Of a stretch of 64,000 nucleotides of DNA, positions 23,052-43,892 are shown piece by piece (the first letter of the stretch is position 1; every line of letters starts with the position of its first letter). The notes below the pieces were generated by a model that saw nothing but the letters and a program-made list of their open reading frames with translations, did not search any database and was not told the DNA's origin. This DNA comes from Candidatus Bathyarchaeota archaeon. Lineage in GTDB: Archaea > Thermoproteota > Bathyarchaeia > Bathyarchaeales > Bathycorpusculaceae. The translations under genes and the position numbers were made by a program. The DNA is taken from contig OY970176.1 of NCBI GenBank assembly GCA_963707955.1, forward strand, positions 864,001 through 928,000. Direction: 5' to 3'.

Positions 23052-23394
23052 AAGCGCACGCTTCTTCAAAGCGCAGAATCAGCTCTAACGTCACTCTAGG
23101 CGGCATGCCTGATGTGTATAGAATTATATCGCGACACATAAAGCGAATTGTACAATGGGCTGGTCACTGATTGGCAAGAAAACACATTGTCAGGGTTGTT
23201 TTGAGTTCACAACACAAGGAAATGCTAGACGATATTGCCAGAAATTGGGCAGAGTCAAAGTGAGACTCTGCTTGTAGCCTTCCTAGAATACGCGAAAAGT
23301 CTAAGCCTAGTACCTGAAAAAGTCCATGAAAAAAGAAGAGAATCTAGCTATCAAAGCGGAAAAATGATTCAATTTCAGTTGTCGAAAAGAATTT

Positions 23395-24678
23395 ATGATA
23401 AGAAAAGAACATAGGATTGGAATGGGCACCACCAAGAAGGATGCACTCACTAGTGATTTGCGCGATGCTATTGCCAAAGAACTACTGGATTCCCTATATA
23501 TAGGATTTGAGTTAAGCAAAAAGGTGTACTTCATACTTGACACCTCTGATAGAGATGCCGAGTTTCTTCAAGATTATATATTGGCCGAGATTCGAGCTCG
23601 ATTGGGAGAACCCTTTGTTGTAGATTTTGCAGAAGTGGGATCTGGAATTACACTCGTGCAGGATCTTCTCACCATGATTTTTCTGAGGTCCGAATTCCCC
23701 TTTGCTTTACTAAACACAAAGAAGAAAGGGACTCATATCAGAATATTCCAAGTTTTCTTGGAGAAAACTAATCAGCCCCTTCTAGAGATTGCTCAACGAT
23801 TCCTTGAATGCAAACGCTTGAATAATCGCCAAAGAAAGAAGTTGAACGTTGACTCCGATCTTTCTGATTTAAGAAATGCTGTTGACTTCTTCACAGAAGG
23901 AGTATGTTCGTATTTTCAATCCTCGAAGAGAATGCCTGTTTTCTATTTCAAGAATCTTAAGCTTGATAAAGATGAGCTGAAAGCGGACGCAACAACCAGA
24001 TTTCTTGAAGGAGTACAGAGAGAAATTCCATGTGTCTTTGTTATGAAGGTCGAAAGAGACTCTGAATATCTGTTACTCTATGTTGAGGATTGTTCCAACA
24101 TAACCAGAATTCCTGCCTTACGTTCCGAGAACCTGAAGGACTCTGTTTCTCGTATATGTGAATCCTCGCAATCTGCAAACAAGCCAAGATTTACCGAAGA
24201 GGGACTGTGTGAATTTTGCAGTGCAATGTCTCATATTCACGGAAAGACTCTTTCTGCGTCAGCACTGACAAAAGCTTTGCTTGATGCTGAGGGCAACGCA
24301 AGGTTGAATAAATCTGAAACGATTTCGGCCGAAACAGTCAGAGAACTCTTTTCAGTTGCCACCGTTAACGCAGCACGTCCGAAACCGAGAGAGCCCAGAG
24401 TTGGTCTCTCACCATATTTTGCCACTGAAGTCGAGCGTCTTACTAGGCAGTGCAAAATCTTTGGACTGGATCCACATTATGCCCTACCTTGGAATTTCAA
24501 GAAAGTTATGTACTATATCAGTTCCGGGTCCCTGAGATACTGCCAAGATAGTGACACATTTGAGACTTTGAGATACATTGGACACCAGTATTGGCTCGAC
24601 TTGGATTCTGCACTTCGTTTGATGGGTTATAGGTATGCCGGAGAAGGAAAGTGGGTTTTTTCGCCGCAGAGAGAGTGA
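23395..24678 (+). CDS. Hypothetical protein, probable inactivated AAA-like ATPase
   Basis: AAA lid-like RFTEEGL...LTKAL...ETISAETVREL segment but no Walker A GKT. Confidence 0.55.
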   Translation: MIRKEHRIGMGTTKKDALTSDLRDAIAKELLDSLYIGFELSKKVYFILDTSDRDAEFLQDYILAEIRARLGEPFVVDFAEVGSGITLVQDLLTMIFLRSEFPFALLNTKKKGTHIRIFQVFLEKTNQPLLEIAQRFLECKRLNNRQRKKLNVDSDLSDLRNAVDFFTEGVCSYFQSSKRMPVFYFKNLKLDKDELKADATTRFLEGVQREIPCVFVMKVERDSEYLLLYVEDCSNITRIPALRSENLKDSVSRICESSQSANKPRFTEEGLCEFCSAMSHIHGKTLSASALTKALLDAEGNARLNKSETISAETVRELFSVATVNAARPKPREPRVGLSPYFATEVERLTRQCKIFGLDPHYALPWNFKKVMYYISSGSLRYCQDSDTFETLRYIGHQYWLDLDSALRLMGYRYAGEGKWVFSPQRE

Positions 24679-24684
24679 CATATC

Positions 24685-26334
24685 CTATAGTGTTTTGAAC
24701 AGAATCGTAAATCTTGCTTTTCTCAAGCTGTTGCTAGCCATGTCCTTATCATGAGTCAGGAGTGTCGCGTCGTAGAGTTCGGCAATATCTATAATCATTC
24801 TGTCAATCGAATTGAAGCTGGAGGTTTCCTTGATCTCGGACCCAGTAGGATTTCGACCAACTTCACTTAATTCAATCCTACCCGTGGAATTAAGACCCAC
24901 CAACATTTGATATTCTTGTCTTGCCAGTCTACTTACTAATCGTTTCTCTTCTTTCTTATCCCATGAGGACATTTCAGAAAGAACAGCAATCGGAATGAAG
25001 ACTTTGATCCGCCGTGTTTTAAGCTCTGGAATCCATTTGCATAGCGCCGAGAAGTCGAGTCCTGCTAGCGATGACGTATCAAGTACAAGCGAATACAGAG
25101 TGTCTGCTAGGAAATTTATCAAATGGTTTGCGTTGGTTCCGCAGAACGGACATGTCGCTCTCCTTATCGTGACCGCTGTGTTGCCAATGGGCATGGTCGT
25201 CTCAACCACAAGCAGAGGCAACTTGCTACCACAGTTAGTGCATTTGAAGAAGAGAGTTGGAAGCATTTCTGACACGGTTTTTTCGAGATCTTTCTTGGAA
25301 ATGAAATATTCCTGCCTGTCTTGGACTGAACGGTTGAGAGATTTCTGCATGATTTTAACTAGCTTTCCCGGTTCCAAAGGAAACATGCTCAGGAGGTATT
25401 TCTCTGCCTCTGAAGTGAGAGGATAACTTGCAGACGTCAAGTGCTCATCAAGTTTTACATCGGATAAGGCCTTAGTCTTGGCAGAATCAACGTAACTTTT
25501 CCTTGCATCTGTAATGAACTCTCCTATGTCTCTCTCCAGCAAAAGAGGAAGTTCGAGGTTTTCAAAAGCGGCGCTTTTTGGATGTAATATTCGGTTAAAG
25601 CCATCGATTTTACCCGACTCGATAGAGAGGAAGAAACTGGACAAGTCCATCACTGAACTCAAGAGTTTAGCCATCTGAACTTTATTGTCCTCATTAATGT
25701 AAGTGATCAGATCATCAAACAAGATTTCGCAATGATCAGCAATCAAGACCGGATAAAACTGCTTCTGAAAGAAGGCATAATAGAAGCGCAAAAGGTTCGC
25801 AAGCACGTCAATCTCAATCCAGACATCTTTGATATTGGGCATCCAACTTTCGCCATGTTTCACTAGGTTTCCATTCAACCATTCTCTCAACTTCTCAGGG
25901 TTCCGACTGACCCTTGTGAAAACCGTTGCAATTACACTGGACGCACCAGTTAGTTGTCTCAGATCAGGAAGACCATTTGGCTTAGCAACAAATTCCAGAA
26001 AGGCATCTACACAACCGTTCAGCATGAGAGAGTTAAGAATCTGAGAATATAATTGAAAGGGCACTCTGGCGAAAATGAAATCAACCTCGAGACAACGCAT
26101 CTGCGACTCACTGAAAATCCTGTTTCGAACAAAAGCCAATAGATGCGTCTTCCCTGATTGATGCGGACCGTATATCACAATCTGGGCTCTCGAATTCACC
26201 TTCAGAATAGCTGTTATTAACCCTTCAATCCTTTTCTTCAATTCACCCCTTTCAAAATATAGTAGTGCGTCAAGGAGCGGGTTTGGAACAAGATTCTTTC
26301 GCACAAGAAATTCTTCGTAGAGCAATCGCTTCAC
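24685..26334 (-). CDS. AAA ATPase-zinc ribbon-PIN ribonuclease fusion
   Basis: YGPHQSGKTH Walker A; atypical Walker B LIADHCE; YPLT.EA lid; CTNC/CPFC; PIN motifs LVLDTSSL, E, IDRMII, LLTHDK. Confidence 0.8.
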   Translation of the reverse strand: MKRLLYEEFLVRKNLVPNPLLDALLYFERGELKKRIEGLITAILKVNSRAQIVIYGPHQSGKTHLLAFVRNRIFSESQMRCLEVDFIFARVPFQLYSQILNSLMLNGCVDAFLEFVAKPNGLPDLRQLTGASSVIATVFTRVSRNPEKLREWLNGNLVKHGESWMPNIKDVWIEIDVLANLLRFYYAFFQKQFYPVLIADHCEILFDDLITYINEDNKVQMAKLLSSVMDLSSFFLSIESGKIDGFNRILHPKSAAFENLELPLLLERDIGEFITDARKSYVDSAKTKALSDVKLDEHLTSASYPLTSEAEKYLLSMFPLEPGKLVKIMQKSLNRSVQDRQEYFISKKDLEKTVSEMLPTLFFKCTNCGSKLPLLVVETTMPIGNTAVTIRRATCPFCGTNANHLINFLADTLYSLVLDTSSLAGLDFSALCKWIPELKTRRIKVFIPIAVLSEMSSWDKKEEKRLVSRLARQEYQMLVGLNSTGRIELSEVGRNPTGSEIKETSSFNSIDRMIIDIAELYDATLLTHDKDMASNSLRKARFTILFKTL

Positions 26335-26365
26335 TAGTTAATCTTTTCTACTGAATCTGTTTATA

Positions 26366-27862
26366 ATGATTGGGGCAAGGTCGATTGCAATGGAGTCATT
26401 AGGTATCAAGTATATACCCAAGGAATATGTCAAAGTTGGCGATCGTCTTTCGATAGATAGTAGAGCAATAAAAGGGAAGAACATAATACTGAGTCATTCC
26501 GCAGAGAGAATCGAATTTGATTCCATCATATTCTTGGGAAAAGTTGTTGAACACACTCCGACAGTTGACTATTTCGGGTTCAATGTATGGTTAGATACAA
26601 GCTACCCCTTCGTCGTTCTAGTTCCTGGAAGAAGAGGCACTGGAAAGAGCTACACTCTAGGCATTCTGTCTGAAGGATTGGCGTTAAATAAAGACGAAAG
26701 TCCAATCACCACAAAAGAAACTAGTCATTCAGTTGTAATCATTGACACGCTTGGACAGTTCTGGCAGATGAAATACAAACCCAATGCAAATGATTATGAG
26801 GGTAAGAAACAGTTAGAGGATTTGAATGATTGGGGATTAAAGCCAGTCGCTTTGAGCAACATTCAGGTTTTTACTCCAAAGGGCATGAAAATTGGAGAAT
26901 CATGGAAAGAGCTTTCTATCCGATTCTGTGAAGTTGAAGTTGGTGAACTTGCTGGGTTTCTAGACGTAGATTTGTATCTTGATCGAATGGGGCAACTACT
27001 GCTGCATATCTATGAAAGAGTGGACGAAGGTGGGTACCAAAGCGCTCACATTGACGAAAAGACAAATGAAGTTGTTAAGGGAGCATTCATTCCAATTTCG
27101 AAAGATTTTGATATAGATGACCTGATAGGTTGCATAGATTCTGATCATGAGATAATCTCGAAGACAACGGGATTTGAGGTTCAAACTCGTCGAGCCCTGA
27201 GAAATCGTCTGATGATAATGCGTAAATGGAAGATCTTCTCGGACAAAGGAACCGCGATAAACGAGATCGTCAAAGAAGGGACACTCACGGTTGTTGATTT
27301 GGAAGGCGCAGATCAGGATTTGAGGAACCTTGTCACTGCTGTATTGACAAGGAAGATATTTCAGGCAAGATCAGAGGCCCGAAGACAGGAGAAACTTGCA
27401 GAGACTGAAGGAGCTGATACTTTCTTTAAGAAATCCCCAATATTGACACCAATGTGGTTAGTCATTGACGAAGCGCATGAGTATTGCCCTTCCACAGGGC
27501 GGACAGCAGCAAAAGAGCCACTGATTCGATTTGCGAAGGAAGGCAGAAGCATCGGATTAGGTTTGATAATGGCAACGCAACAACCTTCTGCTCTGTCTGA
27601 GAAGATCTCTTCCCAGACGGAGGTATTGATCAGTCATGCACTGGCATTTGCAAGTGACATTCAGTCACTCGAAAATCGACTTGTCAACAAGAAAGTAGAT
27701 ACATTTCAGGGCAGAAACCAATCTCACTCATTTGAAGATCAGATTCGCCTTATCTCTCCAGGCACAGCATTTGTTTCCATTGTGAACGTGTCTTCCGTTT
27801 TTCTGCTAATGCTTAGGCCGAGACTGACTATGCATGGAGGAAAGGCGCCCAAAATGGGTTGA
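26366..27862 (+). CDS. HerA/FtsK-superfamily (DUF87) ATPase
   Basis: GRRGTGKS, IIDTLGQ, LVIDEAHEY, AKEGRS.G, ATQQPS. Confidence 0.9.
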   Translation: MIGARSIAMESLGIKYIPKEYVKVGDRLSIDSRAIKGKNIILSHSAERIEFDSIIFLGKVVEHTPTVDYFGFNVWLDTSYPFVVLVPGRRGTGKSYTLGILSEGLALNKDESPITTKETSHSVVIIDTLGQFWQMKYKPNANDYEGKKQLEDLNDWGLKPVALSNIQVFTPKGMKIGESWKELSIRFCEVEVGELAGFLDVDLYLDRMGQLLLHIYERVDEGGYQSAHIDEKTNEVVKGAFIPISKDFDIDDLIGCIDSDHEIISKTTGFEVQTRRALRNRLMIMRKWKIFSDKGTAINEIVKEGTLTVVDLEGADQDLRNLVTAVLTRKIFQARSEARRQEKLAETEGADTFFKKSPILTPMWLVIDEAHEYCPSTGRTAAKEPLIRFAKEGRSIGLGLIMATQQPSALSEKISSQTEVLISHALAFASDIQSLENRLVNKKVDTFQGRNQSHSFEDQIRLISPGTAFVSIVNVSSVFLLMLRPRLTMHGGKAPKMG

Positions 27863-28332
27863 TATTAGTGCCAATTATCGATGCTGATCAGATAAGGATA
27901 TGGACGGAAGATATTCCGGGAAAGTTTGCAGAACTATTGCGGATTTCTGACCCATTGAATGTCTACATATCTTCTCCATGGATAAGTGAATTTGAGCATC
28001 CGTTAATAAATCTCAGAAGGATTCTAGCCAAAAAGAAAGCCAGTACTATAATACTGACGAGACCGCCACAGAACCTTGCCTCAAAACGATTTCTCGCAAG
28101 ACTTAAGAATGAAACTCCTACAAGGATTTATGTTAACAGGCGTCTTCACGCCAAACTATACATAATTGAAGGACCCAAGCAAAAATACGTGGTTATCGGC
28201 TCATCCAATTTTACGCAGGAAGCACGTTTCAATGTTGAATTCGCCGTAGTAATCGTGGGAAGTGATATCATGACAAAAAGAGTAATATACAGTTTCCTCG
28301 CATACCTGAAACCAGCATGCGCGATTTGGTGA
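27859..28332 (+). CDS. Phospholipase D (HKD)-family nuclease, DpdK-like
   Basis: ISSPWI, LHAKLYI...IGSSNFT...N.E. Confidence 0.88.
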   Translation: MILVPIIDADQIRIWTEDIPGKFAELLRISDPLNVYISSPWISEFEHPLINLRRILAKKKASTIILTRPPQNLASKRFLARLKNETPTRIYVNRRLHAKLYIIEGPKQKYVVIGSSNFTQEARFNVEFAVVIVGSDIMTKRVIYSFLAYLKPACAIW

Positions 28333-29516
28333 CTGATTTGCAGTGTTCTGACTATGGTTTGAAGCGTCCATCTTTTCAATTAGATCCAGAAATGGACAGC
28401 GAGATATTTGTGGGCAGAGAGGACGTAAAGAAACGTTTGGAGGATCGCCTTAAACGCGCAATTGTAACTGGCACGAGTCTTCATACCTTTATATACGGCG
28501 ATTATGGATCAGGCAAGACTCATACTCTGAACTATGTCTACAGGTTCTTGAATAAGCAGGATCTCAATGTCTTGCCTATACTTGTTCGTCAGCCTAGGAT
28601 TACGCAGAAATCCGACCCATCTGACTTGTATGCGAGCATTGTTTCGGCAGTCTCAATTTCCGAGATTTTCACCTTGTTTGTTAGGGTACACGACTCCGTT
28701 CAGACCAAACTTAAAGATATAACCGACTTGTACAAACGCGTAGAAGTACTGCGAGGAGTGGTTGAGAATAGAGATTTGTCATTCATCATAAACAATTATG
28801 TTACGAACAGACCGATCGAAGATTATGCCGTGGTCAAGTGGCTTTCGGGCGAAAAGATGGCGGCTAGAGAGAAGGCCGTTTTGAATGTTGTCACGGACAA
28901 CTCTGATCCTTATGTAGCTATCCAGACACTTTTAGCTCTCGTTAAGCTATTTAACAAGATAGGGAAAAAATACGTTTTGTTAATGCTTGACGAGATGGAA
29001 TCTTTGCAAATGATAAGCAGCGAGAAAAAACAAATGCCTTTTGAGGAATTCCTACGGATCCTCACGAGCGAAGATAAAGGACTTGGGGTCCTGTTGGCTC
29101 ACACTACGAAACAAGCCCTAGAAGATGTGACGCCGATGTTTAAAAGCAACACGGCAATAGGTACAAGAATTGGCTATCCGCAGAATTACATTTATCTCAA
29201 ACAATTTGAAGACATGGAATCAATGAAGACCTTTGCGCGGCAGCTCATCAGCGCGTTGAGGGACCCAAAAATCGACGTAAAAGCTCTGGCAAAGAAAAAT
29301 CAGAGCAATACAAACGAACACCTAGCTCTTGATTTCTATCCCTTTACAGAGGAAGCAATTGAAGCAATACACCAATTATCTCAGGGTAGTGGCATGATAA
29401 AACTGTTACTGCCGCGGGACATTCAAAAAGTCATGACGGATAGTCTGGGGGATGCGATGATTCAAAACAGGGCTTTCGTCGATCAAGAAATTGTCTCAAA
29501 GATCATGTCAACCTGA
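28317..29516 (+). CDS. P-loop AAA ATPase (BrxD/Cdc6-like fold), module 1
   Basis: FVGRE, YGDYGSGKTH, LMLDEMES, FYPFTEEAI, PRDI. Confidence 0.88.
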   Translation: MRDLVTDLQCSDYGLKRPSFQLDPEMDSEIFVGREDVKKRLEDRLKRAIVTGTSLHTFIYGDYGSGKTHTLNYVYRFLNKQDLNVLPILVRQPRITQKSDPSDLYASIVSAVSISEIFTLFVRVHDSVQTKLKDITDLYKRVEVLRGVVENRDLSFIINNYVTNRPIEDYAVVKWLSGEKMAAREKAVLNVVTDNSDPYVAIQTLLALVKLFNKIGKKYVLLMLDEMESLQMISSEKKQMPFEEFLRILTSEDKGLGVLLAHTTKQALEDVTPMFKSNTAIGTRIGYPQNYIYLKQFEDMESMKTFARQLISALRDPKIDVKALAKKNQSNTNEHLALDFYPFTEEAIEAIHQLSQGSGMIKLLLPRDIQKVMTDSLGDAMIQNRAFVDQEIVSKIMST

Positions 29517-29530
29517 TTTGAATTGAACCG

Positions 29531-30706
29531 TTAAGCTCGGATGTATCTTCTTCCTGGAATACGCGTAGAGAAATCGAATTTCCTAACCTTTGCTAGTTGC
29601 ACAATCTTTTCCCCATACTCAGCATAGCTCAGACTCTTCGAAAAATCAAGAGAAGAAGCAAGTATCGAAAAGTACAGATCCTCATATGGTATCATGATTA
29701 GTCCAATGTATTTGTAGAATGCTGTGAAGTGAGAGAATTGTCTTTCGAATTCTTCATCAGTCAAGGCGACTAGTCCCTTTCCGTAATTCTCTGCTAGAAG
29801 GATTCCAAGGTTGTTTTCCTTGTCATCGAGGAGTTTTGATACTGCTTTGTCGTCTAACGAGGTCAATTGTTTCTTGAAATCCTTGGCGAGATCACTTAGG
29901 CTAAACTCAGAGCGTTCCTTCATAACAAAACCTGTATCCCTAAGAAAGTGCAATCTGGGGTAAATCTGGCTCTCTCTATGGATTTTGCCATATCCACCTT
30001 CCTTCTCGCTTTTTGCAAATCTGGCTTTCTCTGCTGCATAGAAATTGCGTCTGGTCGAATTTAATTCAATTTGGGCCTTTCTCTCATACCACTTGCTTAC
30101 AGCTGCAAAATATCGATCCTGCAAATCTGATTCAGTGACACTGTCATCCATACACTGAATAAGAGGAATTGTCCCATCCGGGTCTGACGATAGAAGAGCA
30201 TTTGCAAAGACAAATTGCTCGGACCGTGGTAACTTTGCAACTAATCCCCTAGTCCTAAGCATCTCCTCTTTTTTCTGAGGGTCAAGAAATAGAGGTTTTC
30301 CTTTGTCATCTGAGTATCTACCCGCAAGATGCCATCCGTACTTACGCCAAATGTTTATCTCTGGTTTGATAAAACCTAGATTTTGCGCTAACAAGACATG
30401 GCCCATTGCGATAGAATCCTTGCTTGCGACAACGGTCTTGTCGCCAATACCGCTCCCTGACACGGAAAGATTCGTTTCAGGATCCTCATTCCACTTGTAC
30501 TCTTCCCTGTATTTCCTGACAGTTTCCTTGTATTTTGCGACCAATTGAGATGTAAAAATGTAACTCGATGGAAATGTCAGCAGCACAATTACCTTTATGA
30601 AGCCCAACCTTTTCAGCGGTAGACTGAGATTTATGAAACGCTCGATCATCAAGATACACTGTACAGTGAAAGATACATATAAAAAAGAGTGTTTGAGAAC
30701 TAGCAA
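29531..30706 (-). CDS. Hypothetical protein, probable tandem winged-helix; co-transcribed after dpdA
   Basis: Long ORF with HV.LAQNLGFI and PRLHFLRDTGFV...FSLSDLAK wing-like segments. Confidence 0.6.
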   Translation of the reverse strand: MLVLKHSFLYVSFTVQCILMIERFINLSLPLKRLGFIKVIVLLTFPSSYIFTSQLVAKYKETVRKYREEYKWNEDPETNLSVSGSGIGDKTVVASKDSIAMGHVLLAQNLGFIKPEINIWRKYGWHLAGRYSDDKGKPLFLDPQKKEEMLRTRGLVAKLPRSEQFVFANALLSSDPDGTIPLIQCMDDSVTESDLQDRYFAAVSKWYERKAQIELNSTRRNFYAAEKARFAKSEKEGGYGKIHRESQIYPRLHFLRDTGFVMKERSEFSLSDLAKDFKKQLTSLDDKAVSKLLDDKENNLGILLAENYGKGLVALTDEEFERQFSHFTAFYKYIGLIMIPYEDLYFSILASSLDFSKSLSYAEYGEKIVQLAKVRKFDFSTRIPGRRYIRA

Positions 30707-30745
30707 TAATGAGAGTTCAGTAATGTTACCCCTTTGCTTGAGTTC

Positions 30746-35940: not shown

Positions 35941-36085
35941 AGAACAGTCTTACTGTTGTCGCCTACACGCATTAGGACCTGTCTTTGGCGCAATCGTCTA
36001 TCGCCTTGGCGACTTGTCAGCGTTTGAAGACGGTGCGGAAGCACTCTAAGGTGTTGTCTCTAGGCATGCGAGTGTAGATGCAAAA

Positions 36086-36724
36086 CTAGACGCCTTTCTT
36101 ACTGCCCCACACAATTTTATGTTGCTGAAGAATAACCCTTGAATCAAGCCCATCTTTCTTGGCAAACTCTACCAATTGCTTAGCGAATTTCCTGTGCGCC
36201 CATTCGGGTTGGATGACCACGTTTAATGGACTCAGGCGTTCAATGATTCTCTTGGCATATTCGTAGTCCATTCTATTGGCGACCACGAATTTGAACTGAG
36301 TTTTGTGATCGTATAATTCTCTTGTTTTCCCCAAAACACGTTGATCACTTTGCATTCCAGAAGAAGGGCATTTGCAGTCCATGCTGATCAAGTCCACTGA
36401 ATCAAAGATCCTTTTGTGGAAAATCGTTCCATTTGTGTTTATTTGTATCCAATATGCATGATTTTTCAGCTGTTTAACAAGCTTTACCACTTCTTCGATC
36501 TGACAAAGAGGTTCTCCCCCAGTTATTGAGACGCTTTTGCAGGGATACTTTACGATTCTGCTTATCGCGTCCTTGACATCCATTTCCTTACCATTTTGAC
36601 GCGCATATTTTGTGTCACACCAAGAACACTCAAGATTGCATCCAGCCAGTCTGATGAAAATCTCCCGTCTCCCAATCTGAATTCCTTCACCTTCAATGGA
36701 GTAGAAAATCTCTGAAATCTTCAA
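36086..36724 (-). CDS. queE: 7-carboxy-7-deazaguanine synthase (radical SAM)
   Basis: ISEIFYSIEGEG, FIRLAGCNLECSWCDT, ITGGEP, QQHK. Confidence 0.95.
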   Translation of the reverse strand: MKISEIFYSIEGEGIQIGRREIFIRLAGCNLECSWCDTKYARQNGKEMDVKDAISRIVKYPCKSVSITGGEPLCQIEEVVKLVKQLKNHAYWIQINTNGTIFHKRIFDSVDLISMDCKCPSSGMQSDQRVLGKTRELYDHKTQFKFVVANRMDYEYAKRIIERLSPLNVVIQPEWAHRKFAKQLVEFAKKDGLDSRVILQQHKIVWGSKKGV

Positions 36725-37470
36725 ATCTTGCCCTCTTGTCTCAATTTGAGAATTAATGGGTCTTCAATTCCAGCTTCCTGAAATCCTTTGGCCCTGAGCA
36801 AACAAGCATCGCATCTTCCACATGGTACTTCCTCACCAGCGTAGCAGCTCCAGGTCAACTCCAGAGGTGCCTTTAATTGCATGCCTAGTTCCACGATTTC
36901 TCTTTTGTTCTTGAAGAGTAGTGGTGTCTCTATCTTCATTTCGACATTGTATTGTGTACCAACTTTGCTCGCGAATTTCATCAAATCATTAATCCGAGTA
37001 TAGAATTCTGGTCTGCAATCTGGATATCCCGAATAGTCCGTAACGTTGGCAGCAATGAAAATTCTGGCCTCTATGTCTCTTGATCTAATACCATCTTGTT
37101 CAAGCTTGTAGAGGATCTCGGATTCGAGGTATGCTGCAGCCAGAATTATTAGAAAGGTGTTTCGCATTGGAACATATGTTATCGGTATCGTTTTTGACAT
37201 TTCTTCAGGGACTCTGTTTTTAGGAATGGCAAACAACTCTGGGTGAGTTAGGGCCGAGTACCACGCCATGTCTTTGTAGGATGAAATGTCAACTATTGTG
37301 TGCTTGATTTCCAGCACCTTGGCTATTCTCTCAGCACATTGAACTTCTTTGCTAAGCCGTTGACCATAATGCACCGTAATGGCATGCACATCATAACCTA
37401 GACTCTTTGCATAAGCAGCAGTTGTTGTTGAATCCAGTCCGCCGCTAAGCAGAATGACACCTACCTTCAT
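36721..37470 (-). CDS. queC: 7-cyano-7-deazaguanine synthase
   Basis: LSGGLDS, TYVPMRN, YSGYPDCRPEF, TWSCY...CGRCDAC. Confidence 0.96.
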   Translation of the reverse strand: MKVGVILLSGGLDSTTTAAYAKSLGYDVHAITVHYGQRLSKEVQCAERIAKVLEIKHTIVDISSYKDMAWYSALTHPELFAIPKNRVPEEMSKTIPITYVPMRNTFLIILAAAYLESEILYKLEQDGIRSRDIEARIFIAANVTDYSGYPDCRPEFYTRINDLMKFASKVGTQYNVEMKIETPLLFKNKREIVELGMQLKAPLELTWSCYAGEEVPCGRCDACLLRAKGFQEAGIEDPLILKLRQEGKI

Positions 37471-37506
37471 GAACCCCGCCTCATCATAATGTAATAAGCA
37501 CGCAAA

Positions 37507-37866
37507 TCAACTCTGAAAGTACTCGCACCAACTGTTGGTGCTTTCCCAGACCCTAACCTTTTCCAATCGAACAGATTCTGGCAGATCTTTCAAATTTCGG
37601 TAGATGTATCGCGAAATGTTTTCGGAAGTTGGGTTACCTATGTCTTTGAAGTGATTGAGATAAGAATGGTCAAGTTTTTCAGTTATCTGGCACAAGTTTT
37701 TTTTCAGGGTCTTGAAGTCAACTAGAATTCCGATATTGTCAGGCTTTTCTCCGATAACAAAGACTTCAACTTTCCACGTGTGTCCATGAAGTTTTGAGCA
37801 TTTTCCTTTGTATCCAACTAACTTGTGTGCTGCATCGAAATGCGATTCAATCCTCAGCCTATGCAT
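37507..37866 (-). CDS. queD: 6-carboxy-5,6,7,8-tetrahydropterin synthase
   Basis: FDAAHKL...CSKLHGHTW, LDHSYLN, NPTSEN, VWES. Confidence 0.95.
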   Translation of the reverse strand: MHRLRIESHFDAAHKLVGYKGKCSKLHGHTWKVEVFVIGEKPDNIGILVDFKTLKKNLCQITEKLDHSYLNHFKDIGNPTSENISRYIYRNLKDLPESVRLEKVRVWESTNSWCEYFQS

Positions 37867-37880
37867 TGTTTCACCACCAC

Positions 37881-38674
37881 CTAGAGAACCCCCCTCCACT
37901 CTGAACAGACATTGTGATCATGGATCGACTCGAAGCTCACGCATTTCACTCTGCAATATTTCGAGGGATACTTCTCTTTCAGCAATTGAACACATTTTCT
38001 GACAACATCTTCGACGAATCTAGGGTTCTTATGGATTCTCTCTACAATCTCTTTTTCTTCTGGTCTCTTTAACAACGAGAACGTTGGCGAACTAAAACTC
38101 TGATTGCAGATGTCTATGATGTCCAGGAGTTCGATGTTGTTTCTTGTAATGTCAATCGCTACGCTTAGGGTCCCTCTTTGATTGTGGGTCAGACCGTTAC
38201 ACATTTCTTTCGAACAAGGACAAGCTAATACACCGCTCAGAGAGATTCCAACTGTCTTCTGCTTTGATTTGGTGGAATATGTGGCAAACATCCTCGCAAC
38301 AGAGTTCTCGGTCTCTCCACTTGGTCTTGTTCTTTCAAAAGGAAGTTGGCCGAATACTTTGGTGAAACAATTGTAACCGTGCTTTGCGAAGGCATTTTCA
38401 GAGATTTTTTGCGCCAAGTCTTCTATTGACACAGTTTCTTTGGGATCTCTTCAACCGATTCCACGAACCTGCTCATGTGGACCCCTCGAAGATTAGAAGG
38501 CAGAGTTATGTAGCTGTTTATGGCGACAATCACGTGATAGAGTTTGTCTGGTCTCTTTACCACGACGTATTTTTTTAGTCCTTCTACTCCGACTTTCTCT
38601 AACTCGATTTCATTCTCTGGTTTTTCATTCTGCACATCAATCATTTCAGCAACTTTACTATCTACGTTTTTCAA
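37881..38674 (-). CDS. folE2: GTP cyclohydrolase of the FolE2/MptA family, split by a one-base frameshift near 38440
   Basis: DVQ, VGV, RGVHMSRF in 38423-38674; ACPCS, HNQRG, LLKRPEE, NPRFVEDVVR, ESIHDH in 37881-38432. Confidence 0.88.
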
Positions 38675-38677
38675 TGC

Positions 38678-39007
38678 CTACTTCACTCTCCCAGTCAAAA
38701 GATCCTCGTAGACCCGTCTCATGTGAAACACGGCGACTGCAGTTTTCTCATCCAAATTGCATCTGCATGCCTTGCACGACTGGCATATCAACCATCCGCA
38801 CTTGGGGCAAACCGCGGTTTTTGCCGAATCAATTTTTTCGCCGCACTCAAAGCAATAGACTTCCGGGTTGGCGAAGAATTCTAAGAAGTTTTCAATAAGC
38901 CTTGATACTGGAATATGCTTCCGTTTTGCTTCAGCGACCGCTCTTTGTTTCACTTTCTTGTCGATAGTAACATTCAACTTTTCCTTTGTCTTAGCCGACG
39001 GATTCAT
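38678..39007 (-). CDS. Ribbon-helix-helix plus Cys-rich zinc-finger protein, putative regulator of the preQ0 operon
   Basis: KEKLNVTID...A......PVSRLIENFL (RHH) followed by CFEC, CPKC, CQSC..C.C. Confidence 0.75.
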   Translation of the reverse strand: MNPSAKTKEKLNVTIDKKVKQRAVAEAKRKHIPVSRLIENFLEFFANPEVYCFECGEKIDSAKTAVCPKCGWLICQSCKACRCNLDEKTAVAVFHMRRVYEDLLTGRVK

Positions 39008-39176
39008 ACGCCTTGATACGTATTAAGGCGCATTTAATACTTGCTCACGTGTCCATGTAAAAAGCGCGCGCACTGACAAGCTTGAATTCCTATTCACGCA
39101 AGTCAGTCGTGAACTGGCAAGATATTATTATGAGTTCTTCAGTAACTGATCTTGCCGGTCGGAGTGTTGAAATCAG

Positions 39177-39677
39177 TTGAATGTCGAAACGTCCAATGCC
39201 ATTTTGTTCAAGGTTGCTAGGGAATTGCAGGATAGATCTTTGGAGCAAGGTTTGAGTTTGGCGTTGAGAGGCGGGCTTGCAGTCCATATTCTGATGGCGA
39301 GCGTTGGAAAAGAGCCAAAGGACTGGAGGCACAAAGATATTGATGTTGTGCTATTGGAGAAGCAACTACCCAATTTCATAGCTTTGATCAAGAGTCTTGA
39401 GTATGTTAGATCCCCTCTTTCGTCAAAGACCGAGAACTGCCATGTTTATCAAAATGAAGTCAATGGAAGAAGAGTTTCAGTCAATTTCGTAGGCCAGAAA
39501 ACTCTCGAAGTCGAGGCAAAAGAATACGATGGGTACTACTATAATATTATGCCACCTCAGCTTCTGTATGAACAGATAAGGGAGAAATGGATTTCAATGG
39601 ACAAGAACCCTAAAGTCGCAAGGTCTGTTGACTTCTTGAATGGATATGTCAAACATCAAGTTCAGGAGAAACGTTGA
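39177..39677 (+). CDS. Minimal nucleotidyltransferase-fold protein
   Basis: LRGGLAV...HKDIDVV (GG...DxD Pol-beta superfamily motif). Confidence 0.7.
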   Translation: MNVETSNAILFKVARELQDRSLEQGLSLALRGGLAVHILMASVGKEPKDWRHKDIDVVLLEKQLPNFIALIKSLEYVRSPLSSKTENCHVYQNEVNGRRVSVNFVGQKTLEVEAKEYDGYYYNIMPPQLLYEQIREKWISMDKNPKVARSVDFLNGYVKHQVQEKR

Positions 39678-40618
39678 TGATTGAAGGCTCATATCGGGCG
39701 TCTTTTAGGGAGGTGCGCAGGTTGGCCTATCTTAGGTTTGCCTGCGACATTATGGCGATAGAGAAATCGAGCGAGATCAACTTAGCCAGTGAGAAATTCC
39801 TTAATAAGACAAGAACCCTGAACTGGAAACTAAGAACATACACACGAAACACTGGAAAAGTTGAAAGGATTTCGGTGGCAAAGAACCATTTTATAATAGC
39901 GAAGGCGCTTGGGCTAATGAAGATAGAAGGCGAGTTCGTCAAGTCAACTAGTATATCTGCTTTCTTTGCATCCTTGCTAAAAAACGATGAGAACCCATTT
40001 TACCTGTCTCTAGAAGAGAAACTCTCCTTTTTCGAGGAACTGTTCGAGTACAAAGGTCAGGATTTGGCCCCATTGCTGATTCTGTTTGATGATGAAGATT
40101 GGATTGATCTCGGGGAAGGAATAAATAGAATGAAAATAGAGCCAAGACCCCATGTTGATCAAATAGTGAAGTCTGGTTTTGATTGGTTTGTTGATCTTGG
40201 CCTGCTAAGTGCCACATCAGCGAGGAAAGGCAAGTTTGGGATAACAAGAGTTGGCAAGAGTCTGAGGGAGGTTCTTGAATCCAGCAACGGCAGTCATAAA
40301 TCCTCAACTCTACTTGAAGTGTATGCGGAAGATCTCTTGGGTCATATTGATATCTTGGACAGGGCAGATGACGAGTCCATAATGTCATCTTTCCATAAAG
40401 CGAGAGAGAGAACGAGAAAATTTGCAACTAGCGAGATTAGTCGTGATCTCCTTTCTGCCCTGCCAATCGTCCTATTCACACGGTTGCAACTGCTGGCGAA
40501 ATATAGGATACTTTTAAGCGTGGATGAGCTGATTACACATATGAGAGAACTACTTCCCAAGAGTGGAATATCCTTCAAGTGGGATCCCATATACAAAGGG
40601 GGTTACATAAGAACATGA
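39674..40618 (+). CDS. Hypothetical protein, probable winged-helix, module 3
   Basis: NHFIIAKALGLM, NPFYLSLEEK, DWFVDLGLL...FGITRVGK. Confidence 0.65.
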   Translation: MMIEGSYRASFREVRRLAYLRFACDIMAIEKSSEINLASEKFLNKTRTLNWKLRTYTRNTGKVERISVAKNHFIIAKALGLMKIEGEFVKSTSISAFFASLLKNDENPFYLSLEEKLSFFEELFEYKGQDLAPLLILFDDEDWIDLGEGINRMKIEPRPHVDQIVKSGFDWFVDLGLLSATSARKGKFGITRVGKSLREVLESSNGSHKSSTLLEVYAEDLLGHIDILDRADDESIMSSFHKARERTRKFATSEISRDLLSALPIVLFTRLQLLAKYRILLSVDELITHMRELLPKSGISFKWDPIYKGGYIRT

Positions 40619-41811
40619 AAAGCTCAATCCCAAAGGGATACAAGCAGACCATGAAAGAGCTAGGGTTAAAAAGAAACCCATTTCCTATCGAAGCCCCAAA
40701 CTCAGTTGACCATTGGGCAGATTTCAAGAAGTTATTTGACAAACTTCTGGAAGTTCACCTTCAAGCATTACTTAATCCGTCCCCTAGGATTTACGTGTAT
40801 TGGGGCCATTTGGGAACTGGGAAGACTCATGCGTGCAGATATTTCTGCAATGTTAAGACGCAGAAAAAACTGGTCGAGTCTGTGCAGAAGAGGGGATCGA
40901 TCGGAAAGGTAAAGTGTGTTTCAGCGGCAGCCCAGATTCCAGGAAAGACTGGGCAACTAGTATATCACGTATACTTGCAGATCCTTTCAAGACTTCTAGA
41001 CGAAATGACTAAGGAGGACTTCAAAGACCTGTCAAATATCACCGGAGATGCTGGACCATCTTGCGTGATGGCGCTCAATAGTCTTGCTCGGGGGATAACC
41101 GAGCAGACTCAGCTTTCCGGTCCGTTTTTTGGTTTGATGAAGAACACAGAGGAGTACAGATTCCTCACCTTAGGGAGAACCAGAAAATACGGAACTCTGG
41201 AAACAACATCGGATCTCAGCCTGGTCATAGAGAGGATCTTGAAAGCGATTTTGAGATCATATCGAGTGTTCATCTGGGTTGATGAACTGGAAGACCTCAG
41301 GGAATCCAATCTGGTCGAGAGAAGGTTGTTCAGCGACTTCATACGTAGTGTCTACGATGAAATAGACTATGGCCTAACAATCATTCTAAATTTCTCCTGT
41401 GATACGTTTGACGAAGTCGAAAGACTGCTGTTGCCAGCCGTATGGAGCAGAATCAGAAAGGAAGACACCCAAGAAGGTGTAATCGAGTTTCAACTTTTGA
41501 AAGATGATGGTGACCTGCGAGAATACCTTCTTTCCAGTCTGAGGTTTGGAAGAGGTGCTGATCCCAGTGAGATCATAGAAAAGGAAGCCGCCGAAAGCAT
41601 TCTGGAGACCATGAAAAGGGAGGGAGGCAAGAATGGAATATCACCAAGAGATTTCAACAGAAGAATGCAGGAGTTGTTGTGTAGAAGTTATTATTTCTGG
41701 AAGAAGGAAGGCAAAGGTGAGTTTAAGATAACGAAAGCATCTATTGAACAACCAGAGAAACGCCAAGAAATGCTTGAAGAGCTGAGAGAGAAATTGCTTG
41801 GTGGAAACTAG
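40615..41811 (+). CDS. P-loop AAA ATPase, module 3
   Basis: LGLKRNPF, WGHLGTGKTH, IWVDELED, SPRDF; ATGA overlap with the upstream gene. Confidence 0.88.
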   Translation: MKSSIPKGYKQTMKELGLKRNPFPIEAPNSVDHWADFKKLFDKLLEVHLQALLNPSPRIYVYWGHLGTGKTHACRYFCNVKTQKKLVESVQKRGSIGKVKCVSAAAQIPGKTGQLVYHVYLQILSRLLDEMTKEDFKDLSNITGDAGPSCVMALNSLARGITEQTQLSGPFFGLMKNTEEYRFLTLGRTRKYGTLETTSDLSLVIERILKAILRSYRVFIWVDELEDLRESNLVERRLFSDFIRSVYDEIDYGLTIILNFSCDTFDEVERLLLPAVWSRIRKEDTQEGVIEFQLLKDDGDLREYLLSSLRFGRGADPSEIIEKEAAESILETMKREGGKNGISPRDFNRRMQELLCRSYYFWKKEGKGEFKITKASIEQPEKRQEMLEELREKLLGGN

Positions 41812-41814
41812 GCA

Positions 41815-42522
41815 ATGGCAGAAACAAAGGAGGAAGAGCATAAGCTAGTTTTCGTCTTCGACAATACTTTCTTGGATTTCATTTACTGCAAGCAATTGGA
41901 CCTCAAAATCCTCGATTTAATTAGAACAGTGTTTGATCTCACTCTGGGCAATTTAGACCTGATGATAGTGACTGACAAAGTTCACGATAAGATGGTCAAA
42001 AAATACGCGTACCCCTATGGTGATGAATTCGATAGAATGCATAAGAACTGGGTAAATTTGGCTGAAAGACTTTATGGGAACTCGGAGGTTTTTTGTCAGC
42101 ACTACGAGACTAAAAAGCGTTTTTGGGAAAGGGCATTCGGTTGCTGCAGAACCCACTTTGCGAGTGAAGATGTTGATTTGATCACTTCGGCTGCACTTCT
42201 AAAGCAGAAGCAATTCAATCCTGTTATAGTTTCCGACGATTCCCGCCTCATTTACTTTTCGGATATAATGTCTTCCTATTTTGGCTTCTATTTTAGATCC
42301 TTTTCCACGTTTGAACTGCTGTCGTACCTAGGTACGCCTAAATGCCGGCGAGAGCTCTTCCTTTCCAAGAATCATTTTGACCTGGGAATGAGTCTTGCTT
42401 CACTGAATGATAAGCGAGGAATCACCAATTGTCAGTCTCTCGTTGAGGACCTGAAGGCTGCGACGAGAAAAGGGGTTTTCTCTACGCACTATTGTTCTGC
42501 AAAGTTCCCCCAAACGGTTTGA
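41815..42522 (+). CDS. Divergent PIN-like domain protein
   Basis: FVFDNTFL...SEDVDLITSA...IVSDDSRL acidic pattern of PIN nucleases. Confidence 0.65.
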   Translation: MAETKEEEHKLVFVFDNTFLDFIYCKQLDLKILDLIRTVFDLTLGNLDLMIVTDKVHDKMVKKYAYPYGDEFDRMHKNWVNLAERLYGNSEVFCQHYETKKRFWERAFGCCRTHFASEDVDLITSAALLKQKQFNPVIVSDDSRLIYFSDIMSSYFGFYFRSFSTFELLSYLGTPKCRRELFLSKNHFDLGMSLASLNDKRGITNCQSLVEDLKAATRKGVFSTHYCSAKFPQTV

Positions 42523-42630
42523 ACACACTATTGACACCGAATCAGGTGAAATCCAACTTCTGTCTCTACACCGTCACAAACTACAGCAATTCTAATAACA
42601 TAACAGAACTTTTCTAAGAAGCAGAAGAAA

Positions 42631-43773
42631 ATGAAAACAATAAAGCCGATGCTATTTGCGGTTTACAGTGTCTGGGGAAACCAATGGCTAAAACTCGCCA
42701 TGTTTATGCAAGAATGGTGCAGAGACATAAATGTACTCGTGAGCACGGATAGCGTCTTGAATAGTAGTGTTCCAAGGTATGAAGCAATTACAAAATATGG
42801 ATTATCAAAAGGTTTCATAAAGACAAGGGAAGAATACCGCGAATTCATGGAAAATACGGCAAGAAAATTCCCTTATTTGTCGAATTATCTGGACGAATTC
42901 GAGAAACCATTGCCAAAGATGACGTCCCTGTTTATGCTGGACAGCGGTGGATATGGTTTTACAAAGGCTTTCGAAGGTAACAACATACGTAATCAACTGA
43001 GAATACGCATCCCAGATCTCTACAATTGTTGGAAGCACGGAGACGAAAAGTCTCAAGACATGGTTCTGGAGAAGCAGCAACTCCTAAAACCGGATATTCT
43101 GATAACCCTTGATAAAGTTATCTTCCCCAACGAATTGGCCAAAGCAAAAAAGGAGAAAATTGGATTCAGCCTCAAATGCGCAAAGATAGCACTTCAGCGA
43201 AAAAAAGAAGGGATCATCGGCAATACAGCCTTGTTCGCAGCAGTTCATGGTTATGGACCAAGTCCCAACAATGGACCAGAAAAGTACTATGATAACACAA
43301 GAGAGTACATGAATAACTTGTTGAGCTTTGAGAGTGAAGTAGGTGTTCGCTTTGATGGCTTTTCAATAGGATCTCTAGTTCCAATATCGAACGAGCAGAT
43401 ACTAAGCTCGATAGCTAACGCAGTCCGGGATGTCCTCGGAAGTGAAAGGCGTAAAACGGCAGTCCACGGCCTTGGTGCCTCTACTGACAACAAAATATCG
43501 ACGCTCTACAAGTGTGGAGTCAGGATCTTTGACACAAATCTCCACATGAAGAATGCGAGGAATCGATTAATATACCATCCAACTGAACGCAGATACGTTA
43601 GTACCAAAAAGATCAAAAAAGAAGATTGGGAATGCGACTGCAAGATCTGCAGCAACTATACTTGGGATATACTGAACGAAAATCGTCGGAGAGTTCGCGA
43701 AGTTTCCACCGTACTCATCTCACTTCATAACCTATACACTGATCATCTGAGATTCCTTGAAACTCTGCGCTGA
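42631..43773 (+). CDS. Third, divergent TGT-fold transglycosylase
   Basis: MLDSGGYG, ITLDKV, AVHG, DGFSIGSLVP, VHGLGA, GVRIFDT, CDCKIC...LHNL. Confidence 0.85.
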   Translation: MKTIKPMLFAVYSVWGNQWLKLAMFMQEWCRDINVLVSTDSVLNSSVPRYEAITKYGLSKGFIKTREEYREFMENTARKFPYLSNYLDEFEKPLPKMTSLFMLDSGGYGFTKAFEGNNIRNQLRIRIPDLYNCWKHGDEKSQDMVLEKQQLLKPDILITLDKVIFPNELAKAKKEKIGFSLKCAKIALQRKKEGIIGNTALFAAVHGYGPSPNNGPEKYYDNTREYMNNLLSFESEVGVRFDGFSIGSLVPISNEQILSSIANAVRDVLGSERRKTAVHGLGASTDNKISTLYKCGVRIFDTNLHMKNARNRLIYHPTERRYVSTKKIKKEDWECDCKICSNYTWDILNENRRRVREVSTVLISLHNLYTDHLRFLETLR

Positions 43774-43892
43774 CATGATAGGCCTTCTAATAAGCCATTG
43801 TAGGGAAGACATAGCACTAGCGCACGCTTGTCCGCTTTGTTATGTTCTAAACCGTTTGTCTAGTCTGTAGCGCGTTCTTAGAATTCTTCCTT

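Follow-up and report, generated by a model that had tools for sequence, protein, structure and literature searches.

A DpdA-DUF6884 fusion, further transglycosylase-fold enzymes and a putative 7-deazaguanine-based defense island in a bathyarchaeon

Our analysis of a 64,000-nucleotide stretch of a Candidatus Bathyarchaeota archaeon genome (contig OY970176.1, positions 864,001 to 928,000 of the forward strand; hereafter the window) revealed a genuine archaeal gene system, intact and found repeatedly, built around a cassette that is conserved in several archaeal phyla. Specifically, the cassette joins a DNA-guanine transglycosylase of the DpdA family, carrying a C-terminal DUF6884 domain (DpdA::DUF6884), to a triad of an ATPase, a second enzyme with the fold of tRNA-guanine transglycosylases (TGTs), here called TGT2, and a triple winged-helix protein. 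In the window, the cassette stands in an island at 23.4-43.8 kb together with genes for the precursor preQ0, a module of HerA-like, phospholipase D (PLD) and BrxD-like proteins, and a third TGT-fold enzyme (TGT3). Reasoning from homology and gene neighborhood, we consider it moderately likely that the island is a 7-deazaguanine-based archaeal defense system resembling restriction-modification, related to the Dpd systems of bacteria but differently built.

Genes were called by open reading frame (ORF) prediction combined with three hidden Markov model (HMM) libraries (Pfam, NCBIfam and PADLOC), and six transcription units were predicted in the island (Table 1). A preliminary description, drawn from the letters and their translations, had listed a folE2-queD-queC-queE set, three nonidentical TGT-fold genes, four P-loop ATPases, a HerA-like ATPase and a PLD nuclease. 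Each was borne out: the preQ0 genes by Pfam and NCBIfam, all on the minus strand; the TGT-fold genes at 331 bits to DpdA and at 116 and 72 bits to Pfam TGT; the HerA-like and PLD genes by Pfam and PADLOC; and the four ATPases, which are paralogues of one BrxD/ORC-like family. The catalytic Asp and CxCxxC...H motifs that it had read in all three TGTs are present in the translations and invariant in the family alignments. As to its two PIN domains, the one at the C-terminus of the 549-aa ATPase was confirmed, while the 235-aa ORF (g19) gave no PIN match.

Table 1. Predicted genes of the island, with transcription units, and the locus coordinates of a membrane protein found beside the cassette elsewhere
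Position	Strand	Unit	Feature	Evidence or remark
23395..24678	+	1 (convergent with ATPase-PIN gene)	g01, 427 aa, no known family, outer end of HerA module	No Pfam, NCBIfam or PADLOC match
24685..26334	-	1	BrxD/ORC-like P-loop ATPase with C-terminal PIN nuclease domain, 549 aa	PIN E 2.6e-5; weak AAA_16
26366..27862	+	2 (stops and starts overlap)	HerA/FtsK-like ATPase, 498 aa	Pfam DUF87, HerA_C; PADLOC mad8, HerA
27859..28332	+	2	Single-HKD PLD-family nuclease, 157 aa	PLDc_2 E 1.3e-8
28317..29516	+	2	BrxD-like AAA ATPase, 399 aa	Pfam BrxC_BrxD E 1.1e-18; PADLOC SngB, BrxD
29531..30706	-	3	g06, 358-391 aa, candidate sequence-recognition DNA binder	Directly downstream of dpdA; start probably 30607
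30746..32491	-	3	DpdA DNA-guanine transglycosylase with C-terminal DUF6884	Likely start 32467, 573 aa
32824..34005	+	4 (triad; genes overlap)	AAA ATPase, BrxD/ORC-Cdc6-like, 393 aa	Pfam BrxC_BrxD, AAA_22, ORC-CDC6-like
34002..35085	+	4	TGT2, arcTGT-like catalytic domain, ~360 aa	Pfam TGT 116 bits
35086..35940	+	4	g10, triple winged-helix protein, 284 aa	AlphaFold2 model
36086..36724	-	5	queE (7-carboxy-7-deazaguanine synthase)	NCBIfam QueE models 120-157 bits; radical SAM
36721..37470	-	5	queC (preQ0 synthase)	TIGR00364 182 bits, cut-off 150
37507..37899	-	5	queD	TIGR03367 103 bits, cut-off 89
37881..38674	-	5	folE2/MptA-type GTP cyclohydrolase	PF02649; N-terminal piece aligns to intact FolE2
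38678..39007	-	5 (head of operon)	Ribbon-helix-helix (RHH) and Zn-ribbon protein, 109 aa, probable regulator	DUF6364; weak RelB and rubredoxin-like
39177..39677	+	6	g16, 166 aa, possible minimal nucleotidyltransferase	Weak Pfam lead, E 0.056
39674..40618	+	6	g17, 314 aa, no known family, upstream of fourth ATPase	No library matches
40579..41811	+	6	Fourth BrxD/ORC-like P-loop ATPase, 410 aa	AAA_22, AAA_16; paralogue of triad ATPase
41815..42522	+	6	g19, 235 aa, no known family	No match in Pfam, NCBIfam, PADLOC or PDB
42631..43773	+	6	TGT3, deeply divergent TGT-fold enzyme, 380 aa	Pfam TGT 72 bits
L006 5885-6556; L084 4615-5286; L125 10908-11567			Multi-pass membrane protein of related loci, 219-223 aa	Absent from window's genome

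The DpdA fusion and its transglycosylase companions

The dpdA gene of unit 3 scores 331.4 bits on the NCBIfam DpdA model NF041059 (cut-off 200) over residues 9-408 and 290 bits on the PADLOC DpdA model, and its family profile matches the solved DNA-guanine transglycosylase in PDB entry 7ui4 at 255 bits over positions 1-397. It carries the motifs DCGAF and FDS and the CxCxxC...H zinc site, with D89, D251, C363, C365, C368 and H390 invariant in alignments of 10 and of 16 sequences. In a maximum-likelihood (ML) tree, the archaeal DpdAs fall inside the DpdA clade with a Shimodaira-Hasegawa approximate likelihood ratio test (SH-aLRT) value of 99; the trees used here are two quick IQ-TREE runs, of 69 and 57 rows, with SH-aLRT support only. 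The C-terminal 140 residues, overlooked in the preliminary description, form a DUF6884 domain (Pfam match at residues 442-547) that gives partial matches to the N-terminal third of the PADLOC DpdC models (25-30 bits over ~50-70 positions). DUF6884 is described as related to YaaA/DUF328, with base flipping predicted by Pfam's authors (PMC11701544), and DpdC is described as a DUF328 protein that converts dPreQ0 to dADG (PMC12839542, PMC5699537). PF21818 is present in 118 of the 120 best homologues (49-82% identity, ~570 aa), among which NCBI names DpdA in Bathyarchaeia, Nitrososphaeria, Aenigmatarchaeota, Methanoculleus and Methanocalculus. By these profile and motif matches, the gene encodes a genuine DpdA with a DpdC-like domain attached, and its DpdA domain belongs, by homology, to a family that swaps G for preQ0 in double-stranded DNA.

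Two observations from the related loci (numbered L; sampled genomes are numbered G) concern the surroundings of this gene elsewhere. First, in three bacterial loci, dpdA frames of ~680-800 aa start with a DUF6884/YaaA-like domain (L023 9140-11266, L031 8867-11284, L065 9989-12037), a domain order that is the reverse of the archaeal fusion. Second, a 322-aa ORF directly after dpdA in L006 (11728-12696), with no counterpart in the window, gave a faint match to the HhH-GPD base-excision glycosylases (E 0.0035, 17 bits).

TGT2 shares its catalytic core with the tRNA-modifying archaeosine TGT (arcTGT). It keeps the motifs DSGGF and FDS and the CxCxxC...H site, its nearest PDB entry is 1iq8 (P. horikoshii arcTGT), and its TIM barrel aligns over arcTGT residues 10-338, with both catalytic Asp and the zinc site conserved. 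It differs from arcTGT in lacking C1, C2 and PUA, the tRNA-binding C-terminal domains; at ~356 aa (342-356 aa in orthologues) it compares with arcTGT frames of 484-676 aa. Its score on the arcTGT equivalog TIGR00432 is 146.8 bits, below the cut-off of 350, and on the DpdA model NF041059 it reaches 27.2 bits against a cut-off of 200. In the ML trees, TGT2 forms its own clade (SH-aLRT 97) outside arcTGT plus bacterial TGT, which are joined at 97-99, and the methanogen TGT2s group with the Bathyarchaeial TGT2s rather than with the arcTGTs of their own hosts. A separate 540-aa arcTGT lies at 1.97 Mb in the window's genome, and all five of the other host genomes checked have an arcTGT of their own. 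At 90% identity, the TGT2 family falls into at least 111 clusters, none with an annotation other than "tRNA-guanine transglycosylase".

Orthologues of the triad ATPase (35-71% identity) always stand beside TGT2 and the winged-helix gene, and orthologues of the winged-helix protein, g10, were found in every triad locus. An AlphaFold2 model of g10 (mean predicted local distance difference test score, pLDDT, 78.6) shows three winged helix-turn-helix units; its top Foldseek match is a four-winged-helix fragment of SelB (1lva, E 5e-4), and a search of the Atlas returned AAA_assoc_C-like structure at template modeling scores of 0.47-0.48. A complex prediction for DpdA::DUF6884 with TGT2 (the L006 pair, with alignments) scored 0.00 and counts neither for nor against an interaction. 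The notion that g10, g06 and g17 are paralogous accessory "reader" proteins was dropped, as profile-profile comparisons of g10/g06, g10/g17 and g06/g17 all gave less than 3% probability.

The TGT2 gene, described earlier as keeping its zinc site, is split in the given assembly: its frame stops at 34946, leaving the zinc-site His and the last 63 residues in the +1 frame, where the tail is 64% identical to residues 296-356 of the L006 protein. Similarly, folE2 is split at about 38432-38441 into two pieces in different frames. In short-read contigs from three runs of a single study, one base is consistently missing at 34891 (depths 31, 6.9 and 5.3), and one run, the sole cover of the second site, adds a C after 38441. 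Because the short-read contigs lack both breaks, these are assembly errors; TGT2 and folE2 are intact in the organism, and the earlier reading of TGT2 through the break was biologically right. The short-read contigs differ further at 38435 (T>C) and at 38046 (A>G, in all four runs). No common motif was found in the sequence context of these differences, and other genes of the genome may carry similar false frameshifts.

TGT3, encoded at the end of unit 6, is both more divergent and far rarer. It keeps the motifs DSGGY and FDT and the CxCxxC...H site, scores 18.1 bits on NF041059 (cut-off 200) and forms a long-branched clade of its own with an SH-aLRT of 100 in both trees, where TGT2 and TGT3 alike fall outside the DpdA clade. 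Only five other clusters were found among 5.8 billion proteins, and 14 representatives at E<=1e-30 among 1.84 billion. A metagenome scan returned a single locus, L084, in which a TGT3 of 66% identity is accompanied by an RHH gene, a membrane protein, g16 (54% identity) and a related ATPase, with a stand-alone DUF6884 gene right after TGT3. This repeats the logic of a TGT with an ATPase and DUF6884, and the TGT3 operon is therefore read as a third cassette. For the remaining proteins, PDB sequence searches with g19, g16 and g01 gave nothing at E<=1 except one 13-bit, chance-level match, and a relaxed Pfam search (E<=5) of the six unknown island proteins gave leads only at E>0.03. The proposal of the preliminary description would have been contradicted had the two extra TGTs grouped with the housekeeping tRNA-G15 TGTs; they do not, and because the genome has a separate arcTGT and the two form clades of their own (97 and 100), TGT2 and TGT3 are, on phylogenetic evidence, not housekeeping enzymes.

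Small TGTs outside these two families were also seen. In many bacterial dpdA loci, a second small TGT paralogue (293-366 aa) lies a few kb from dpdA; these paralogues form two clades (L022, L029, L035, L045, L064 and L072; and L034, L057, L069, L075, L078 and L082), neither of which groups with archaeal TGT2, and we found no mention of them in the available portions of the literature covered. A 343-aa TGT without C-terminal domains from another genome of the phylum (L096, G399:C19:12701-13636) has a long branch in the first tree, placed outside both arcTGT and TGT2, and may represent a further family of short TGT paralogues. In addition, a locus from an uncultured bacterium (L059, 1994-7358) combines a plain DpdA with a protein resembling the winged-helix one (52 bits to the g10 profile) and an ATPase of the triad type (111 bits), with no TGT2 within the locus; it may be a minimal bacterial form of an arrangement that dispenses with DpdB.

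Recurrence, precursor supply and the HerA/PLD module

Among 80 loci around DpdA relatives, the triad adjoins DpdA::DUF6884, as it does in the window, in L004, L006, L007, L011, L013 and L014, and it does so also in L125, with records from Aenigmatarchaeota, Bathyarchaeia, Methanobacteriota and Methanoregula; in genome G431 the distance from dpdA to the triad is 13 kb, and queC and queD flank the latter. L125 (G003:C10:9300-29200) is a second, diverged copy of the set in the Bathyarchaeia genome that also holds L006, with the order HerA, BrxD-like ATPase, PLD, two unknowns, DpdA::DUF6884, ATPase, winged-helix protein, TGT2, membrane protein and RHH. Its proteins are 27-58% identical to those of the window (DpdA::DUF6884 32%, ATPase 40%, winged-helix protein 35%, TGT2 46%, RHH 58%), and a gene set kept together over such divergence is most simply one system, of which two copies in one genome may have different specificities. 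A sample of 151 genomes from a single methanogen order held TGT2 in 7 cases and DpdA::DUF6884 in 6; six of the seven TGT2 genomes carry the fusion on the same contig, 5.5-22.5 kb away, compared with none of the 144 that lack TGT2, although these genomes are related to one another, so that the count should not be read as a statistical test. Named records of TGT2 homologues also come from Methanoperedens, Jordarchaeaceae, Haladaptatus and Nitrososphaera. Closer to the window, the 401 sampled genomes of its phylum include 3 with a DpdA domain and 1, the window's own, with a TGT2-type enzyme, and none of 25 genomes of the same family has DpdA. Together with a local dip in GC content (see below), this rare and patchy spread fits a horizontally moving defense island.

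A different reading concerns the targets of TGT2 and TGT3. Conceivably, only DpdA::DUF6884 marks DNA, while TGT2, TGT3 or both act on a protein, such as the partner ATPase, or on a tRNA or viral RNA, as regulators or effectors. The TGT-like Cap10 of type IV cyclic-oligonucleotide-based antiphage signaling systems (CBASS), for example, adds a deazaguanine to its cyclase at the N-terminus. Protein-modifying or regulatory TGT-fold enzymes in conflict systems are on record in the available text of bioRxiv 10.64898/2026.10.19.760177, each extra TGT of the island is operonic with a P-loop ATPase, TGT2 lies nearest the tRNA TGTs by HMM score and tree, and the PADLOC "TGT" model matches TGT3 and TGT2, if weakly (E 9e-4 and 9e-3). 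The likeness to type IV CBASS extends to a TGT-fold enzyme in a defense locus with a QueC-family gene nearby. Yet no CD-NTase cyclase family was found in the island by Pfam, NCBIfam or PADLOC, nor is there a Cap9-type partner; the island QueC is a true preQ0 synthase, above its cut-off and part of a full pathway. Moreover, TGT2 is without the PUA and other C-terminal tRNA-binding domains, is encoded alongside a protein with three winged helices, a fold that binds nucleic acids, and co-occurs tightly with the DNA enzyme DpdA. Hence, we regard a protein or RNA target for the extra TGTs as unlikely.

By homology, the island's own FolE2, QueD, QueE and QueC make preQ0 from GTP, and tblastn identified its queC, queD and folE2 as the sole copies in the genome. 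These sole copies, next to a normal arcTGT elsewhere in the genome, could be taken to indicate housekeeping RNA modification, in which the operon would supply archaeosine formation in tRNA and the extra TGTs would be specialized tRNA or rRNA transglycosylases, as the name "tRNA-guanine transglycosylase" given to TGT2 homologues by NCBI and JGI would imply. We hold this to be highly improbable. QueC was found in 8 of 26 genomes of the family while arcTGT-type matches were found in 24 of 25, so de novo preQ0 synthesis is dispensable, and not ancestral housekeeping, in this lineage; DpdA and TGT2 are missing from nearly all relatives, DpdA is of a DNA enzyme family, and the neighbors are nuclease and ATPase families of defense type. 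Where preQ0 genes are missing beside the cassette (L004, L006, L007, L084 and L125), a conserved multi-pass membrane protein of 219-223 aa without an NCBIfam family match is present; in all of these loci except L004 it directly follows the RHH gene (55-60% identity in L006, L007, L084 and L125), which is the position of the preQ0 operon in the window. It is a candidate importer of a 7-deazaguanine precursor.

The left half of the island is a module of defense-type families, with matches to BrxD/SngB and HerA/mad8 and weaker ones to ZacB, DrmC and DpdK, the last three all falling on the PLD protein (DpdK at 21 bits against a cut-off of 100). The HerA-like ATPase is distinct from the housekeeping HerA at 49949-51490 and has orthologues of 64% (L006), 57% (L016) and 34% (L125) identity, and the same three loci hold orthologues of the PLD protein and the BrxD-like ATPase. 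An orthologue of g01 occupies the equivalent position in L006 (33% identity). In the ATPase-PIN fusion, Walker B reads DH, not DE. For g06, no Pfam, NCBIfam or PADLOC family matched; an Atlas feature search with a language model gave a lead to the recognition domains of FokI, AlwI and BpuJI (0.90, 170 shared features), and an AlphaFold2 model of the 358-aa form from a 3-row alignment was too poor for a fold search (pLDDT 52). Orthologues of g06 are present in L006 (44% identity) and L016 (31%).

Since defense genes cluster for reasons besides shared function, such a module could be one tile in a mosaic of independent systems: a modification-only DpdA cassette, a HerA/PLD/BrxD-like capture system, a TGT3 system and toxin-antitoxin remnants, with no modification-dependent restriction. 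The missing HerA/PLD module near dpdA in methanogen loci, the absence of a TGT3 orthologue from the 80 dpdA loci and the unrelated remnants at the left edge are in keeping with a mosaic, as is the description of HerA-anchored capture systems as stand-alone immune systems in the available text of PMC10853773 and PMC12839542. What makes a mosaic distinctly unlikely is conservation of linkage. HerA, PLD, the BrxD-like ATPase and a g06 homologue stand beside dpdA in both L006 and L016, the complete set recurs in L006 and in the diverged L125, and dpdA is directly followed on the same strand by g06 in the window and by an ATPase-PIN orthologue and a g06 homologue in L016; chance neighbors rarely stay together over such divergence.

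Borders of the island

The island lies inside a GC dip spanning 20-47 kb (0.42-0.45, compared with 0.47-0.52 in the adjoining stretches), between housekeeping genes on both sides: an ABC transporter and an M42 peptidase that end at 19737 on the left, and a nurA-herA-mre11-rad50 operon from 46667 on the right. The dip, the patchy distribution and the fact that phages and archaeal viruses are described as carrying DpdA with preQ0 genes for anti-restriction (PMC6884629, PMC10516641) would suit an integrated or degraded virus or plasmid that modifies its own DNA, and so that of its host, to escape restriction, rather than a host defense. However, the region shows no integrase, capsid, terminase or replication gene, no tRNA gene and no Rfam family match, its flanking direct repeats are limited to matches of 16-29 nt, which is chance size, and the cassette has conserved nuclease and translocase neighbors. 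Among 50,697 phage records, TGT2 and TGT3 have no close relatives (best ~25% identity), which therefore provides no link to the viral DpdA1-4 enzymes. Thus, we judge a mobile element very unlikely as the explanation.

Several genes were observed at the edges. On the left, an AbiEii nucleotidyltransferase fragment (21056-21349, plus strand; the first 61 of 238 profile positions only) and a complete VapC-type PIN gene outside the range first described (21681-22088, plus strand) look like toxin-antitoxin remnants, which are typical of defense-island borders. Next to them, a class-I S-adenosylmethionine-dependent methyltransferase (Methyltransf_25 and related; 22302-23051, plus strand) is split by one in-frame TAG at 22677-22679, with both halves in one frame; the TAG may be a nonsense mutation, an assembly error, or a read-through or recoded codon. 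On the right, a metallo-beta-lactamase/beta-CASP (RMMBL) protein (43893-45275, minus strand) lies between TGT3 and rad50. Since the genome encodes a paralogue of 38% identity at another place, this protein may not be part of the island.

Relation to known systems and proposed function

The closest comparison is with bacterial Dpd (dpdA-K, in Salmonella Montevideo and others), with which the island shares a DpdA above cut-off, a domain of partial DpdC likeness, linked preQ0 genes, a patchy island distribution and a small PLD protein of faint DpdK likeness. It differs in its archaeal host, in the fusion of DpdA to DUF6884 and in having two further TGT paralogues, and where the bacterial systems have DpdD-K it has BrxD/ORC-like ATPases, winged-helix proteins, HerA and a PIN fusion. 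As the preliminary description had noted, neither DpdB, which in the bacterial systems is a ParB-like ATPase with a DGQHR/DGQQR motif, nor a helicase such as those among DpdE-J is recognizable in the island: Pfam, NCBIfam and PADLOC gave no match to DpdB, DpdD or a helicase family. Genome-wide, the DpdD model NF041061 found nothing; the DpdB model NF041060 found nothing either, but it also missed two bacterial dpd genomes, and a home-built HMM from 10 cyanobacterial loci, which covers the cyanobacterial type of DpdB only, gave nothing at E<=10. The proposal of an archaeal system of differing architecture is thus supported both by what is missing and by what stands instead.

Two other kinds of system invite comparison. 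First, the BREX-related capture systems (BRC), found in some archaea, combine a HerA/FtsK translocase, BREX-type ATPases, a multi-part DNA-binding protein and a TGT homologue, with no DpdB or DpdC, and their authors propose an ATPase standing in for DpdB, according to the available text of PMC12839542. On that description, BRC and the island share HerA, a BREX-type ATPase and a TGT, and in both DpdB is wanting. The island, however, pairs its three TGTs, one of them a true DpdA::DUF6884, with a PLD nuclease and a preQ0 operon of its own, and it lacks PglZ, DUF6079/BrxC, STAND NTPase, DUF4007 and GNAT; for PglZ, DUF6079, DUF4007 and GNAT, Pfam gave no match at E<=0.01 in the 20 island proteins, nor at E<=5 in the six unknowns. 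Second, the viral DpdA1-4 clusters of phages and haloviruses likewise pair a TGT-family enzyme with folE, queD, queE and queC and insert 7-deazaguanine after replication, but they are anti-restriction enzymes without nuclease or ATPase modules. We found no published description of the gene set as an already known Dpd variant, nor of DpdA::DUF6884 with the TGT2 triad, in the full-text literature searched, a search that covered neither the founding Dpd papers nor supplements and that yielded only bacterial Dpd, viral DpdA1-4, BRC and TGT-like regulators; similar archaeal loci may be contained in the locus lists that supplement PMC12839542 and PMC6884629.

Several points weigh against reading the island as a defense system that marks DNA. 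The likeness of DUF6884 to DpdC is only partial, not to full-length DpdC, and the domain has no NCBIfam match. TGT2 is closest in sequence to tRNA enzymes (147 bits to arcTGT versus 27 to DpdA), and a nucleic acid other than DNA is therefore possible. The sole preQ0 genes of the genome may also, or mainly, feed tRNA archaeosine. The test for the absence of DpdB had no working positive control. One of the seven TGT2-bearing methanogen genomes, G434, yielded no DpdA. In methanogen loci, no HerA/PLD module was seen up to 10 kb from dpdA; only other HerA-like proteins (570-659 aa) occur there, and the restriction arm is therefore not universal. Finally, the TGT3 operon is tied to the rest by adjacency here and by one related contig (L084).

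If the island does act as a 7-deazaguanine-based defense, its parts can be arranged into a provisional scheme, in which the defense function and the roles of TGT2, TGT3 and DUF6884 are inferred. All three TGTs would act on DNA and share the preQ0 supply, which the RHH/Zn-ribbon protein would regulate. DUF6884 would take the role of DpdC, converting the nitrile, once inserted, to the amide (dADG), or would process the flipped base in another way. The triad would replace DpdB, with the winged-helix protein choosing or holding the DNA and the ATPase supplying the ATP-dependent step, and TGT2 would act as a second enzyme of base exchange, writing at different sites or on the opposite strand. The g16-g17-ATPase-g19-TGT3 operon would be a third cassette of the same logic, an ATPase with a TGT, drawing on the common preQ0 pool. 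The HerA-like translocase, the PLD protein, the BrxD-like ATPase, g06 with its likeness to the FokI recognition domain, and the ATPase-PIN fusion would form the restriction arm, which captures and cuts unmarked DNA.

One variation concerns TGT2, and perhaps TGT3, as restriction enzymes rather than writers, that is, as a base-excision arm sharing its fold with the cognate modification enzyme. In TGT chemistry, guanine is removed by way of a covalent Asp-ribose intermediate, and the inserted 7-deazaguanine cannot itself be removed; a TGT paralogue guided to its motifs by the winged-helix protein and the ATPase would therefore attack unmarked, foreign DNA only. The PLD and PIN nucleases would then act on the abasic sites or DNA-protein crosslinks left behind, and DpdA::DUF6884 would immunize the host sites. 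We view this variation as quite improbable.

To our knowledge, the bacterial DpdA/B/C route is the only cellular path of 7-deazaguanine DNA marking that has been worked out, and the literature covered holds no nonbacterial cellular examples. Our results indicate that archaea of several phyla carry a conserved alternative, composed of a DpdA with a DpdC-like fusion, no DpdB, and an obligatory-looking triad with a second TGT, to which the Bathyarchaeia version adds a HerA/PLD arm and the window a third, very rare TGT. This raises the question of how a DNA transglycosylase finds and opens its sites without DpdB, and of what DUF6884 and the 219-223-aa membrane protein contribute. It also asks why two or three TGTs are needed, whether for two marks, two strands, a writer and an eraser, or a writer and a restriction enzyme. 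Beyond archaeal defense, the members of this system would be new enzymes for site-directed base exchange in DNA.

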